A stretch of 64,000 bases of DNA from a virus (Duplodnaviria > Caudoviricetes), in IMG/VR virus record IMGVR_UViG_3300020463_000001, positions 1 through 64,000 of that record, one strand, 5' to 3'. The notes under the pieces were generated by a model. It searched no databases and was not told the origin of the DNA. It saw nothing but the letters and a program-made list of their open reading frames with translations. Shown piece by piece: positions 33,489 to 52,085 of this stretch. Numbering within the stretch: position 1 is the stretch's first letter; each line of letters begins with the position of its first letter. Position numbers and translations under genes: made by a program.

Positions 33489-33563
33489 GCGGGTATCGTA
33501 TAAAGGCTATTACGTCAGCCTTCCAAGCTGATCATCTGAGTTCGATTCTCAGTACCCGCTCCA
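33489..33563 (+). tRNA. trnG: tRNA-Gly(TCC)
   Basis: Cloverleaf GCGGGTA/TACCCGC, anticodon arm TCAGC-CTTCCAA-GCTGA, TTCGATT loop, encoded CCA. Confidence 0.95.
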
Positions 33564-33979: not shown

Positions 33980-34055
33980 GCCGGTTTAGCTCAGCAGGTA
34001 GAGCAACTCACTTGTAATGAGAAGGTCGGGAGTTCGATTCTCTCAACCGGCACCA
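33980..34055 (+). tRNA. trnT: tRNA-Thr(TGT)
   Basis: GCCGGTT/AACCGGC, anticodon loop CTTGTAA, TTCGATT, encoded CCA. Confidence 0.96.
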
Positions 34056-43767: not shown

Positions 43768-44364
43768 ATGTCAAATTTTAATGATAGACTTTTCTACAAA
43801 AGATTGAAATTGATAGAAGCTCCTCACAATATTCTAACGACTAAAGTGAAGAAATTCGATTTTAAATTATACGATGCTCCACAATTAAGCGTGGAGATGA
43901 TAGATATCATGTTATTTCACGCTGGTCGAGGTCTTAGCGCGAACCAACTCAACCTAGACGCTCGAATATTTGTTATGCAGAAAAGTTCTGGCGAATACAT
44001 TACAGCAATTAATCCCAAAATAATATCCAAATCCAAAAAGACTCAATTAGACACGGAAGGCTGTTTGAGTTACCCCAATATATTCTTAGAAATATCTAGA
44101 CCAAAATCTGTCGAAGTAGAGTATTATGACGAACATGAAAACAAAGTAACTGAGTTTTTGGCCGGAATCGATGCAAGATGTTTTCAACATGAATTAGATC
44201 ATTTGAACGGCGTTGTCTATACATCGAAGGTATCCAGTCTGAAACTGCAGAGGGCGAAAAATCGTGCGAAGAAACAAACGAAAAATAATTATACTATAAA
44301 TAATAGTAATATTATGGGGGTTCATAATGGAACTGGATCTAAAAACAGAATTCGAAAAATATAA
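43768..44364 (+). CDS. def: Peptide deformylase
   Basis: GRGLSANQ, EGCLS, QHELDHLNG. Confidence 0.95.
   Translation: MSNFNDRLFYKRLKLIEAPHNILTTKVKKFDFKLYDAPQLSVEMIDIMLFHAGRGLSANQLNLDARIFVMQKSSGEYITAINPKIISKSKKTQLDTEGCLSYPNIFLEISRPKSVEVEYYDEHENKVTEFLAGIDARCFQHELDHLNGVVYTSKVSSLKLQRAKNRAKKQTKNNYTINNSNIMGVHNGTGSKNRIRKI
44295..44302 (+). promoter_or_regulatory. T4 late promoter TATAAATA upstream of the lipase
   Basis: Exact consensus inside the def 3' end. Confidence 0.6.
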
Positions 44365-45121
44365 AACTATCGAAAAGATAGGTGAGTATTCTACATCTGT
44401 CGCTAAACAACTAGCACTCTTTTCAACCCTAGTGTACAAGACTGATAACAAGCACTTTCTAGAGAATGCGTTATCCGGTTACACTAAATCACACTTTAAA
44501 ACTTTTGATAACGATGGTACAGAAGCACTCGTAGTAAAGACTGGAACTTGCATTGTTCTTTCTTTTCGCGGAACTGAACCAACAGAACTCAAAGATATCT
44601 TAGCCGATATCAATATCATTCCAAAAAAATCCGAAGAAAGACAGGGGATTGTCCATAGTGGTTTCGCAGAAGCCCTAGATAAAATTTGGGATGATGTGGA
44701 ACTCTATCTGGACTCAATCCATGCGTCCGGAGATCTGGTCTACATATGCGGTCACAGTCTTGGTGGGGCTCTTGCGACTGTCGCAGCTGCTAGATCGAAG
44801 TATCTTTGTCAAGTGTATACTTATGGCCAACCTAGAGTTGGAAATAGGAAATATGCAAAGAATGTAAAATCAACTATCTACCGTCATGTACAAGGAGCTG
44901 ATATAGTTCCTGCCGTTCCGTTACCTATGCTTTTCTATAGACATATCGGAGACATAAAAGTGGTAGACAAACAGAAAAAAATAGTATACACTACAAAGTC
45001 TTTAATAAATTTTGATTGGATTAGATTTAAACTTATGGTAGGATCAATCTTTTCCAAAATACCGTTAATGTCATTGGTCAAAGACCACAACATAACGGAT
45101 TATTATGATAATATTGCATAA
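44327..45121 (+). CDS. Class 3 lipase (alpha/beta hydrolase)
   Basis: SFRGTE, VHSGF, CGHSLGGALA, YTYGQPRVG, DIVPAVP, C-terminal DH. Confidence 0.92.
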   Translation: MELDLKTEFEKYKTIEKIGEYSTSVAKQLALFSTLVYKTDNKHFLENALSGYTKSHFKTFDNDGTEALVVKTGTCIVLSFRGTEPTELKDILADINIIPKKSEERQGIVHSGFAEALDKIWDDVELYLDSIHASGDLVYICGHSLGGALATVAAARSKYLCQVYTYGQPRVGNRKYAKNVKSTIYRHVQGADIVPAVPLPMLFYRHIGDIKVVDKQKKIVYTTKSLINFDWIRFKLMVGSIFSKIPLMSLVKDHNITDYYDNIA

Positions 45122-45129
45122 GGAATAAT

Positions 45130-45372
45130 ATGCCAACATACACTTATATTTGCAATTCATGTAATTATAGATTTGAGAAAATGCTGAAAATATCCGAAAG
45201 AAAAAGACCTCTACAGGAACCATGTGAAACGTGCGGAGAAAATACAGTATCTCAAACTATATTGCAAGTGAATGTCGGCGATCCGATTGCATTAGGTGTC
45301 AAGAAGATACCAAAAGACTTTAAAGAAGGAGTTTTAGATAAAGCCAGAAAAGTGCCAGGCGCTGCGATTTGA
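45130..45372 (+). CDS. FmdB-family zinc-ribbon protein
   Basis: MPTYTYICNSC ... PCETCG. Confidence 0.85.
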   Translation: MPTYTYICNSCNYRFEKMLKISERKRPLQEPCETCGENTVSQTILQVNVGDPIALGVKKIPKDFKEGVLDKARKVPGAAI

Positions 45373-45382
45373 GTTTTACATT

Positions 45383-46129
45383 ATGGAATATTATGGGATG
45401 GTGCTTAACACAAGGAGCCATTTCATGGGTAAACATAGAAGGAAAACTGCGAGGTTCGCATTGAACGAGTCACACTTTAATTTAGTTGACATTCATCCAA
45501 TGACCGCGAATCAGAGCAGAGTATTTGAAGACTTTGAAGACGGAAAACACCTGTTTTTACATGGTGTCGCTGGAACAGGAAAGACTTACATTTCATTGTA
45601 TCTAGCATCAAGAGAACTATTTGACTTAGGCCCGAGATATAAAAATTTAAGCATAGTAAGGAGTATTGTACCTACAAGAGATATCGGGTTTTTGCCAGGC
45701 TCGGAAGAACAAAAGATGGAAGTCTATGAGTCTCCATATAAATCAATCTTCTCTGATTTATTTTGCAGAGGGGATGCGTACCAACTACTGAAAAAGAAGG
45801 GTGCGATTAATTTCATGACTACCTCATTCATCAGGGGAGTCACATTAAACGACACCATCATTTTAGTAGATGAGTGTCAGAATATGAATTTCCATGAGTT
45901 GGATTCAATTATTACGAGATTAGGAAAGAATTGTAGAATTATATTTTGTGGCGATTTCAGACAAAGCGATTTCACCAAAACAAATGATAAGGATGGCATA
46001 CTACAATTCATGAATATTATGAAGAACATGACGGATGTAGGATTTACAGAATTCGAAGAACACGATATTGTGAGAAGTTGTTTTGTTAAATCCTATATAC
46101 TCAATAAATTGCAGGCTGGAATAGTCTAA
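45383..46129 (+). CDS. phoH: PhoH-family ATPase
   Basis: GVAGTGKT, GFLPG...K, FIRGVTL, DECQN, RLGKNCRIIFCGD..QSD, DIVRS; likely start at 45426. Confidence 0.93.
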   Translation: MEYYGMVLNTRSHFMGKHRRKTARFALNESHFNLVDIHPMTANQSRVFEDFEDGKHLFLHGVAGTGKTYISLYLASRELFDLGPRYKNLSIVRSIVPTRDIGFLPGSEEQKMEVYESPYKSIFSDLFCRGDAYQLLKKKGAINFMTTSFIRGVTLNDTIILVDECQNMNFHELDSIITRLGKNCRIIFCGDFRQSDFTKTNDKDGILQFMNIMKNMTDVGFTEFEEHDIVRSCFVKSYILNKLQAGIV

Positions 46130-46139
46130 GGAGTTACCG

Positions 46140-46466
46140 ATGGGCGATTTAGTAGATGCAAGAGATGTATTCGCGGTTAGGAAACATATCAACGCAAAAG
46201 ATTTGGAAGGTATTCAGAATTATATGAAAGCAGAGGAATATTCTAGAAATATATCTCATAGTCTGATGGAGAATATCATAGACGCAATTGATCAGTCTGG
46301 ATTTAATATATCAGAAAGAAAAATGCTAGATGATTTGACGTTTATTAGTATGGCAATAACTGCCAGTCTGGATAGACAGTTAGGTGTGGATAATCAATTT
46401 TACGAACATATCGGAAAAATGATTAAGAAAATTAAGTCTGAGATAGTTAAGGCTGAAATAAAATAA
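46140..46466 (+). CDS. Hypothetical protein
   Basis: AAGGAG RBS. Confidence 0.7.
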   Translation: MGDLVDARDVFAVRKHINAKDLEGIQNYMKAEEYSRNISHSLMENIIDAIDQSGFNISERKMLDDLTFISMAITASLDRQLGVDNQFYEHIGKMIKKIKSEIVKAEIK

Positions 46467-46479
46467 GGAGGCACATAAC

Positions 46480-46524
46480 ATGAATTGCAAATGCTGCGAA
46501 TGTTGTAATTGTGATTGTTGTTAG
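46480..46524 (+). CDS. 14-aa Cys-rich micropeptide MNCKCCECCNCDCC (metallothionein-like)
   Basis: Perfect TAAGGAGG RBS 8 nt upstream; fills the gap between two genes; 8 of 14 residues are Cys. Confidence 0.65.
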   Translation: MNCKCCECCNCDCC

Positions 46525-46531
46525 ATAAATT

Positions 46532-47254
46532 ATGTTTAATCATGTGGAGTTTGAGTCTGATGACTTTGAACTTAAAACTGTGAATGAAGATGGAAAAAGA
46601 TGGTATGTTACTGATAGTGGTGGGAGATATCCATCCATCACTACAGTAATTTCTTACTTTAGTAAGGCCGCCATCATGGCGTGGAGAAAACGAGTCGGAG
46701 AAGCAGAGGCAAATAAAGTCTCTCTCAAAGCATCTCGTAGAGGAACCAACGTCCACTTAATGTGCGAAGACTATATTAACAATCTTCCTACAAAAAAAGA
46801 AGCGATGCCAAGTGACTTAGAAATGTTTCATATTATGAAACCAGTCCTTGACGAAAGAATTGGAAATGTCTACGCTCAAGAGTATGCGATGTATTCCGAT
46901 CATCTGGGAATAGCAGGACGATGTGACTGTATTGCGGAATTCGATGGTAAACTGTCCATCATAGATTTTAAAACGTCTAAGAGACCTCTCAGTGCGTTTG
47001 GTGGAGAGAAATTAGACAAGTATCTGAGACAGGCCTCGGGGTATGCAGTGATGTTTGAAGAACGAACTAAAATACCTGTTTCTCAGGTCGTTATTATCGC
47101 TGCAGTAGATAATGAATTACATCCGGAAGTTCATGTCTCAAAAAGAGACAAACATATCGGAGATTTGATTGGAATGATTGATGAATATTATGTCAAAAAT
47201 GGTCTGACAAATAATAATAACCATCAATTAAAAAAAGGAATAATTGGGAAGTAA
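46532..47254 (+). CDS. PD-(D/E)xK exonuclease conserved in T4-like marine phages
   Basis: RYPSITTV, RGTNVH...E.Y, AGRCDCIAEFDG, IIDFKTS, Q.SGYA. Confidence 0.85.
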   Translation: MFNHVEFESDDFELKTVNEDGKRWYVTDSGGRYPSITTVISYFSKAAIMAWRKRVGEAEANKVSLKASRRGTNVHLMCEDYINNLPTKKEAMPSDLEMFHIMKPVLDERIGNVYAQEYAMYSDHLGIAGRCDCIAEFDGKLSIIDFKTSKRPLSAFGGEKLDKYLRQASGYAVMFEERTKIPVSQVVIIAAVDNELHPEVHVSKRDKHIGDLIGMIDEYYVKNGLTNNNNHQLKKGIIGK

Positions 47255-47321
47255 TGATTTCCAAATATTCCTCATTTATTTCACGGTTTTTTGACGAAAA
47301 TCGGAAGGTGAGGTACTAAAT

Positions 47322-47567
47322 ATGTGGGTATGGTTAATTCAAGCTATCGCTGGAAGTATAATCGGAAGTGCTACAAGCAGTTGGTTTCAGAACACTGCAG
47401 CAGGGAAATGGTTCTTTGCAAAAGTATCTTCACTATACGACTGGGCCGCAGTGCGGTATAATTTAAAAGTCTTGGACGCAGAAGATACATGGAGAAAAAA
47501 GTATCCAAATGTTTCTGCTAAAATGGACGAATTAGAAAGTAGATTGGAGGCGCTAGAAGAAAAATAA
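47322..47567 (+). CDS. Small membrane-associated protein
   Basis: Hydrophobic N-terminus; GAGG RBS. Confidence 0.65.
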   Translation: MWVWLIQAIAGSIIGSATSSWFQNTAAGKWFFAKVSSLYDWAAVRYNLKVLDAEDTWRKKYPNVSAKMDELESRLEALEEK

Positions 47568-47590
47568 TTCACAAATTAAGGACACTCACA

Positions 47591-47821
47591 GTGGAAAACT
47601 ACAGACAACTTCAAGCAAGTCTAACAGACCTCAATTGGGATGGAGAAGATTACGAAGAGACTGTCGTGATATTTCCGACAGAACGCAATATCAAATCCGT
47701 AAAATCGATAACATCAGATTATACTAAATACTTTGATGTGATTAAGAACGCTGTGAGAAACTCCGCCTCGGTGAATTATGATCCAGACCTAGAGCCTATC
47801 GCAGTCTTATCTACAAACTAA
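47591..47821 (+). CDS. Hypothetical protein
   Basis: ORF track. Confidence 0.55.
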   Translation: MENYRQLQASLTDLNWDGEDYEETVVIFPTERNIKSVKSITSDYTKYFDVIKNAVRNSASVNYDPDLEPIAVLSTN

Positions 47822-47832
47822 TGTAGAACTTA

Positions 47833-47861
47833 TTGACAAACCCTTCGTTATGTTATATAAT
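47833..47861 (+). promoter_or_regulatory. sigma70-type promoter
   Basis: TTGACA-17-TATAAT perfect. Confidence 0.85.
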
Positions 47862-47897
47862 TGTTGAGTTATTTAACATAGCACAGGAATATTGCAT

Positions 47898-48440
47898 ATG
47901 AAATTTACGCTTCTGTTTGCCGTGGCGTTGGGAATATTTACACCCAATAAAGTGGCTACTAGTGTTCTGGATAGAGATGCATCAATTGAAGAAGAAGTTC
48001 GATGTCTTGCAGAGAACGTCTACTTTGAATCAAGAAATGAGAGTGTTATGGGACAAATCGCTGTCGCATATGTTACTCTCAATCGTGTTTTTGCACCAAA
48101 ACATCCAGACACTATTTGTGGCGTAGTCCGTCAGGGAGAATACAAAGAATCTTGGAAAACTAGGGCAACCAAAGATCCAAATGATGCGGTATTCATCCCT
48201 GTAAAGGACAGATGTCAATTTTCTTGGTACTGTGATGGTAAATCTGACAAAATACTTGATTTGACTGCATGGAAAAGTGCAGTCAATGTAGCCGCAATGG
48301 TTACAGTCGAGTACGGATCAGAACGACATAGTGATCCTACAGACGGAGCATTATGGTATCATGCAGACTATGTTCAATCCAAATTCCATTCTAAGTTGGT
48401 CTATACCACTAAGATTGGAACTCACATATTCTACCGATAG
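47898..48440 (+). CDS. SleB/Hydrolase_2 cell-wall hydrolase
   Basis: CLAENVYFESRNE, GQIAVAYVTLNRV, CQFSWYCDG, DPTDGALWYHA, IGTHIFY. Confidence 0.92.
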   Translation: MKFTLLFAVALGIFTPNKVATSVLDRDASIEEEVRCLAENVYFESRNESVMGQIAVAYVTLNRVFAPKHPDTICGVVRQGEYKESWKTRATKDPNDAVFIPVKDRCQFSWYCDGKSDKILDLTAWKSAVNVAAMVTVEYGSERHSDPTDGALWYHADYVQSKFHSKLVYTTKIGTHIFYR

Positions 48441-52000: not shown

Positions 52001-52085
52001 GGCGGGGTTCCCGAGCGGTCAAAGGGATCAGACTGTAAATCTGACGGCTATGCCTTCGAAGGTTCGAATCCTTCCCCCGCCACCA
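52001..52085 (+). tRNA. trnY: tRNA-Tyr(GTA)
   Basis: GGCGGGG/CCCCGCC, TCAGA-CTGTAAA-TCTGA, long variable arm, TTCGAAT, CCA. Confidence 0.96.

Follow-up and report, generated by a model that had tools for sequence, protein, structure and literature searches.

Is a 45-nt open reading frame with eight cysteine codons, lying between two genes of a marine phage, a gene in its own right, and if it is, what would a peptide of only 14 residues do? A preliminary description raised this question for the window, that is, the whole stretch of 64,000 nucleotides that was analysed, which is the first 64 kb of a viral genome of 200,733 bp with terminal repeats. The virus is T4-like as seen from a Gp23 match, and psbA is absent from it.

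The micro-ORF and its setting in the window

When the sequence was re-read, the Shine-Dalgarno sequence (SD), the 8-nt spacer, the frame from ATG to TAG and the eight-Cys peptide were all found as they had been described. The SD, TAAGGAGG, is at 46464 to 46471 on the plus strand, 8 nt before the ATG at 46480, and the micro-ORF extends on the same strand from 46480 to 46524 with 14 codons and a TAG at 46522 to 46524. The TAA within TAAGGAGG is the stop codon of an upstream ORF of 108 aa that belongs to no known family (46140 to 46466, plus strand), and the micro-ORF is operon-internal and SD-led with its ATG 13 nt past this stop. The phoH-exonuclease setting had also been given correctly. A gene for a PhoH-like ATPase (45383 to 46129, plus strand) is the conserved left border of this slot, and a PD-(D/E)XK exonuclease of 240 aa (46532 to 47254, plus strand) begins at an ATG 7 nt after the micro-ORF stop. 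In this allele, which bears the micro-ORF, the exonuclease gene has no SD of its own.

These genes are in a one-strand run of auxiliary-type genes from 43768 to 48440, namely, a peptide deformylase (43768 to 44364, itself of the auxiliary type), a class-3 lipase that overlaps it by 38 nt (44327 to 45121), PhoH, the exonuclease and, downstream of the latter, a Hydrolase_2 cell-wall hydrolase (47892 to 48440). No metal-related neighbour of the micro-ORF and no mer gene was found in the window. The tRNA genes in the window are those for Gly(tcc) at 33489 to 33563, Thr(tgt) at 33980 to 34055 and Tyr(gta) at 52001 to 52085, and there is no tRNA-Cys among them.

The peptide, MNCKCCECCNCDCC, has 8 Cys in 14 aa (57%) as against 0.5% Cys in the long ORFs of the phage. 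One residue precedes the first Cys and none follows the last, and K, E, N and D are the spacers. It is a member of a C-x-CC-x-CC-x-C-x-CC family, the array here being C-x-CC-x-CC-N-C-x-CC.

Conservation of the reading frame at its slot

It had been argued that eight Cys codons behind a perfect ribosome binding site (RBS) are unlikely by chance. Among the 2167 ATG-started ORFs of 8 to 40 codons in the genome the micro-ORF is the only one with eight Cys, and the runner-up among the short ORFs has 6 Cys in 32 aa. When ORFs of up to 40 codons were counted in 30 Markov-1 random genomes, the maximum was 8 Cys in one genome, 7 in another and 5 or 6 in the remaining 28. Since one of the 30 also reached 8 Cys and one reached 7, the within-genome count is only suggestive as evidence against chance, and that part of the argument has to be softened. 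The RBS is likewise weaker evidence than had been assumed, because of the 12 AAGGAGG sites in the genome only about half precede an ORF at a suitable distance; a strong SD does not prove that the micro-ORF is translated. The RNA-library contigs of runs X15, X16, X18 and X20 do not cover the micro-ORF.

It is the conservation of the eight Cys codons that upholds the argument. The preliminary description had proposed that in-frame conservation be looked for at the syntenic position of related phages, and this was done with loci that were gathered via the exonuclease protein and not via the micro-ORF. The intact alleles at the phoH-exonuclease slot keep all eight Cys. Among the close relatives an identical micro-ORF is on three contigs, one relative carries MDCKCCECCNCDCC, with one TGT to TGC change and TAG replaced by TAA, and one carries MDCKCCKCCNCDCC at the slot. 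Four phages (L002, L008, L009 and L010), with exonucleases that are 88-98% identical, are cleanly without the micro-ORF, the junction being taaggtaggttATG or similar, and in such alleles the exonuclease is served directly by the SD that elsewhere precedes the micro-ORF. The indel covers 46469 to 46529 on the plus strand, 61 nt that are replaced by TAGG. A contig of the marine metatranscriptome run X18 has the same ORF-less junction, 46468 being joined to 46530 with TAGG between, and therefore both alleles circulate in nature. Since the micro-ORF is cleanly absent where the exonuclease is 88-98% identical, it is dispensable; it is also mobile.

More distant relatives retain it in a different arrangement. 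In L577, L571, L492 and L499, whose exonuclease is 47% identical to that of the window, the order is PhoH, micro-ORF, a TTGACA-17-TATTAT promoter and exonuclease. The slot is judged to be old because the micro-ORF is kept there at this degree of divergence, and from the position of the promoter the micro-ORF in these four is taken to close the preceding transcription unit and not to lead the exonuclease. In L492 (5331 to 6144, minus strand) and L577 (2226 to 2340) the micro-ORF is followed by a small stem-loop, a sigma-70 promoter that matches at 11 of 12 positions, and the exonuclease. Promoter-early/stem-loop modules have been proposed as mediators of modular shuffling in T4-type genomes, and the stem-loop and promoter of L492 and L577, which resemble such modules, could be a vehicle for moving the micro-ORF.

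A second synteny set, gathered via a partner protein of 135 aa, has five intact alleles and many relatives that are cleanly without the micro-ORF; in the latter the downstream gene takes over the same SD. In both sets copies are either intact or cleanly gone, and no decayed copy was seen. A further observation on how the element may arrive comes from comparing L591 with L644 and L614 with L606 (upstream of position 2501). The bearing alleles (L591 and L614) start ATG AAC TGT, and TAA and 6 nt then precede a new ATG at which the downstream gene restarts. In relatives of the L644/L606 type, which are without the micro-ORF, the downstream gene starts ATG AAC GGA AAT AAG. It looks as if in L591 and L614 a cassette had been inserted just behind the original start codon, bringing with it a stop, a spacer and a new ATG.

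Eight alleles from the two synteny sets, collected via the flanking proteins and hence independently of the micro-ORF, were used for a codon test. There were no changes at the 16 first and second positions of the Cys codons, four changes at the eight third positions, all T to C or C to T, and eight changes at the 12 sites outside the Cys codons. The probability of no change at the 16 Cys-codon sites is (20/36)^12, that is, about 9e-4.

The family in other phages and in SAR86

A scan of IMG/VR with the pattern M-x-C-x-CC-x-CC-x-C-x-CC gave 60 loci, and after evident trinucleotide-repeat artefacts were removed five groups with an AAGGAG-type SD and unrelated flanks were left. Wider patterns, run on viral, metagenome and genome collections, gave at least 29 distinct phage or metagenome peptides of 13 to 18 aa, and nearly all phage members have an AAGGAG-type SD 6 to 9 nt upstream. 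Many pattern matches were discarded because they were TGC/GCA/CAG trinucleotide repeats read off-frame or in antisense, with poly-Cys runs that have neither a start codon nor an SD, and L114 (MSCSCCHCCSCSCC, no SD) and L298 were excluded as doubtful.

The contexts in phages vary and include the exonuclease, NifU_N/IscU, cytidylyltransferases, T4 gp15 and gp16 (small terminase), an L33-like ORF and a protein of roughly 1,075 aa; in one context there is a DUF5824-like protein and then a protein of 135-158 aa. In L164 (3577 to 4061) the micro-ORF MCKCCKCCNCTCCE and the start of a NifU_N/IscU Fe-S scaffold downstream (E = 1e-37) are 8 nt apart. In a five-member phage group a 67-aa ORF like ribosomal protein L33 follows the micro-ORF (L087, 12071 to 12274; L537, 3533 to 3736), its score of 23.8-24.3 bits being just below the Pfam cut-off of 25. 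In L563 (7086 to 8308) the micro-ORF MRTCKCCICCKCDCC is in the late structural region, with the tail sheath stabiliser T4 gp15 on one side and a small-terminase-like gene on the other.

The first cellular match was a single-cell genome of SAR86, a group of uncultured, globally abundant bacteria. The eight-Cys array is present in 28 of 81 species-level SAR86-related genomes, in which it adds 21 distinct peptides to the phage set, whereas the reversed pattern, used as a control on the same 81 genomes, had no match. Of 401 genomes sampled evenly across the class, only two matched, both of them SAR86 relatives. The SAR86 peptides are acidic (for example, MCDCCSCCNCDCCS and MCDCCDCCECSCCSK) and their genes are chromosomal. 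Since at the SAR86 loci (L671-L698) the ATG is preceded at 6-7 nt by a TATAAT-like box and not by an SD, these copies appear to be leaderless. The gene downstream codes for a GloB-type binuclear-metal hydrolase in 16 genomes, MerC in three, BD-FAE hydrolases in two, TauD in one and Nmad3 in one. The three species in which merC (PF03203) is the next gene have diverged peptides. HXXEE proteins are upstream of the micro-ORF in four SAR86 genomes, and four gloB orthologues have no micro-ORF upstream. In the gloB group the three final codons pair with the nucleotides immediately past the stop in an 8-9-bp hairpin (GATTGTTGC/GCAACAAT) that encloses the stop codon; a single compensatory change is seen, in L680 (TGC to TGT opposite GCA to ACA). 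SAR86 and phage copies are alike in having the same C-x-CC-x-CC-x-C-x-CC array in 13-19 aa and in ending shortly after the last CC; they differ in that the SAR86 copies are leaderless, acidic and at few fixed sites (gloB, merC), whereas those of phages have an SD, are neutral to basic and occupy many slots. That SAR86 is the host of the phage does not follow from the shared micro-gene, and the identity between the phage deformylase and those of SAR86 is only about 35%.

Among the matches listed, the 50 distinct peptides have an invariant Cys spacing and none has lost a Cys. Hydrophobic spacer residues are found at 1 of 116 positions in the phage peptides and 2 of 84 in those of SAR86 (3 of 200 in total), as against 49% in the phage proteome; aromatic spacers are found at none of the 200, and the spacers are almost without exception K, E, D, S, T, N, R or Q. 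Across the family 0-5 residues precede the first Cys, and the micro-ORF ends 0-2 residues past the last CC in 49 of 50 peptides, the exception being a SAR86 peptide with six. Since the spacers are hydrophilic, the C-terminal end is near the last CC and the Cys spacing is invariant, the pattern indicates that the peptide itself is constrained and not the Cys codons alone.

Could the micro-ORF be a chance ORF or a selfish or neutral mini-cassette that is of no benefit to the phage and is carried along by modular shuffling in the hyperplastic regions of T4-type genomes? Its presence and absence do vary among near-identical phages, and promoter and stem-loop elements adjoin it in some relatives. 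Such a cassette would not be expected to keep all eight Cys at a slot where the exonuclease has diverged to 47% identity, to be conserved across 28 species-level SAR86 genomes, to have a strongly non-random spacer composition or to leave no decayed copies, and we therefore regard this explanation as highly improbable. Because no copy, whether near-identical or diverged and whether at this slot or in an unrelated context, has lost any of the eight Cys codons, the comparison places the micro-ORF far beyond a chance ORF. The claim that standard gene callers would miss it is borne out as well: it appears to be a genuine micro-gene, it is unannotated, and callers impose a minimum ORF length.

The family is apparently undescribed. 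Three queries of 20 aa, one of them lengthened by one added K, had no match in Pfam and NCBIfam, nor was there one in PDB, even at E <= 10, although such searches are weak at 20 aa. In cultured phages neither a megablast of the locus nor tblastn of the 135-aa partner protein gave a match, and blastn of the 71-nt element gave chance matches only (E >= 0.6). In phage C48C1, which has the best cultured relative of the exonuclease, other small ORFs occupy the slot. In the literature that was searched on Cys-rich peptides of SAR86, on small proteins and metallothioneins of phages and on MerC-linked small ORFs, nothing relevant was found.

Possible roles: regulation of the next gene or a metal-binding peptide

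If the micro-ORF is a gene, its function could be in the act of its translation or in its product. In the first case the peptide would be irrelevant; the eight Cys codons would report the supply of charged tRNA-Cys, and thereby of reduced sulfur, and termination-reinitiation or occlusion would set the output of the next gene, which here is the exonuclease. The precedent is in mycobacteria, where polycysteine leaderless short ORFs act as cysteine attenuators of a 'Cys ribulon' (Canestrari et al., bioRxiv 10.1101/834739). Our micro-ORFs share with these that they are unannotated, about a dozen codons long, dominated by Cys, with consecutive Cys codons (three CC pairs but no run of three or more), and just upstream of another gene; further likenesses of the SAR86 copies are the leaderless start, the hairpin with its compensatory change over the stop, and gloB or tauD as the next gene. 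In the majority of phage contexts 0-10 nt separate the micro-ORF from the next start codon. In the window the exonuclease start follows the micro-ORF stop at 7 nt with no SD, while the ORF-less alleles use that SD directly, and the same relation to the SD is seen in the second synteny group. Thus, translation of the micro-ORF in the window allele would also deliver ribosomes to the exonuclease start, which probably depends on ribosomes that finish the micro-ORF.

The likeness does not extend much further. The phage copy is SD-led and operon-internal and not a leaderless first cistron, and the genes downstream are mutually unrelated and, in phages, unrelated to sulfur (exonuclease, IscU, L33-like, small terminase and unknowns), those in SAR86 being mixed. 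A promoter parts the micro-ORF from the exonuclease in L577, L571, L492 and L499; in L550 a GC-rich hairpin comes after the micro-ORF, with no ORF close by; the L090 copy overlaps the stop of the upstream gene (ATGA); and many downstream genes retain their own SD, which overlaps the micro-ORF stop. No duplex that would sequester an RBS was found at the window ORF, the fold of 46440 to 46580 having z = -0.72, which is not significant, with 48 of 200 shuffles equal or better. The promoters, L550, L090, the retained SDs and the RNA fold argue against a dedicated attenuator of the mycobacterial type. Moreover, a stalling sensor has no need of invariant Cys spacing, a conserved C-terminal end and hydrophilic spacers, and conserved spacing and spacer chemistry set the family apart from the mycobacterial ORFs. 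We consider it unlikely that sensing or coupling is what the micro-ORF is for, although this is a serious rival explanation. Since the slot is shared but the micro-ORF is upstream of the exonuclease's own promoter in distant relatives, it is best seen from its arrangement as a free-standing accessory gene that is independent of any one neighbour and not a dedicated leader.

If the function is in the product, the most likely explanation is that MNCKCCECCNCDCC is a metallothionein-like metal-thiolate peptide, in effect a miniature metallothionein. We favour this because the composition fits the class, because CC pairs are classic ligands of soft metals, and because of the merC, GloB and IscU neighbours. 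Metallothioneins bind their metal through CC and C-x-C arrays. The peptide has the low molecular weight and very high Cys content of the class (57%, where 15-35% is typical). With the Cu-metallothionein of Neurospora crassa, the CC-x-CC of the mammalian alpha-domain and SmtA/BmtA it shares, besides very high Cys, C-x-C/CC motifs, hydrophilic spacers (K, S, T, D, E, N), a core that is free of aromatic residues, no sequence that would form secondary structure and a cytoplasmic location with no signal peptide. The N. crassa protein has about 25 aa and 7 Cys, and to our knowledge the micro-ORF peptide is about half the length of the smallest gene-encoded metallothionein. The family differs from metallothioneins in having no detectable sequence kinship to any recognised metallothionein family and in being carried by phages as a dispensable cassette. 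Vicinal CC pairs are also the Hg(II) ligands of MerT, MerF and MerA. The CC pairs are thus shared with the vicinal-Cys sites of the mer proteins (MerT, MerF, MerC and the C-terminus of MerA), and three SAR86 copies are directly upstream of merC; the mer sites are within larger membrane proteins or enzymes, whereas the micro-ORF product would be a free peptide. The merC and gloB neighbours in SAR86 and the IscU neighbour in one phage are circumstantial links of the family to metal.

The preliminary description had called the peptide phytochelatin-like, and as to kind this is wrong. Phytochelatins are (gamma-Glu-Cys)n-Gly peptides that phytochelatin synthase makes from glutathione, that is, they are made enzymatically and are not gene-encoded, while the micro-ORF peptide has its own gene and would be made on the ribosome with alpha-peptide bonds and no Glu-Cys repeat. 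What the two share is that they are short, Cys-rich thiol peptides; metal chelation is a property of phytochelatins that the micro-ORF peptide is only presumed to have. A role in defence had also been suggested, and nothing was found that links the peptide to defence.

The constraints on codons and peptide would be the same if the thiols served an end other than metal, for instance, if the peptide buffered redox changes or electrophiles, carried sulfur, inhibited a protein of the host or were the substrate of a distantly encoded modification enzyme. The glutathione-linked GloB and TauD next to SAR86 copies suggest thiol or sulfur chemistry. However, vicinal CC pairs form disulfides poorly and are typical metal ligands, and in roughly 12 contexts there is no leader-plus-core organisation and no recurring modifying enzyme, transporter or partner; a non-metal thiol peptide is, we think, quite improbable. 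A RiPP precursor was rejected since there is no leader, only 0-5 residues preceding the first Cys, and no enzyme recurs as a neighbour across contexts.

The metal-thiolate reading is thus the best supported of those weighed, and we would give it about an even chance of being correct, a small part of the probability being assigned to none of them. According to this reading the 45-nt ORF would be a genuine, translated accessory gene of the phage that is read from its SD, and the eight thiolates would enclose a small metal cluster, the soft ions in question being Zn(II), Cu(I), Cd(II), Hg(II) or possibly Fe. Unless loaded with metal, a free peptide of 14 residues might be degraded quickly. During infection the peptide would buffer, sequester or hand over trace metal or thiol equivalents, presumably in a metal-poor, copper-stressed host of the surface ocean, in whose waters Cu is toxic and Zn, Co, Cd and Fe are in short supply.

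For the family as a whole we propose, tentatively and in the knowledge that it may well prove otherwise, that marine phages and SAR86 share an unannotated auxiliary micro-gene for the smallest ribosomal metallothionein known (13-19 aa, 8 Cys), which phages would shuttle between slots and which would reshape how the infected cell manages trace metals (Zn, Cu, Cd, Hg, Fe) or thiols. Although absent from Pfam and NCBIfam and missed by gene callers, the family is carried by many marine phages that have not been cultured and by roughly one in three of the SAR86 species sampled, and with peptides that are easy to synthesise it offers the 'dark' microproteome a concrete test case. Should it be a cysteine-sensing uORF instead, ribosome-based sensing of amino acids would extend to phages and SAR86. 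If the peptide binds metal, the size limit of a gene-encoded metallothionein would be halved, and the handling of trace metals or thiols would join the auxiliary functions of phages in the surface ocean.
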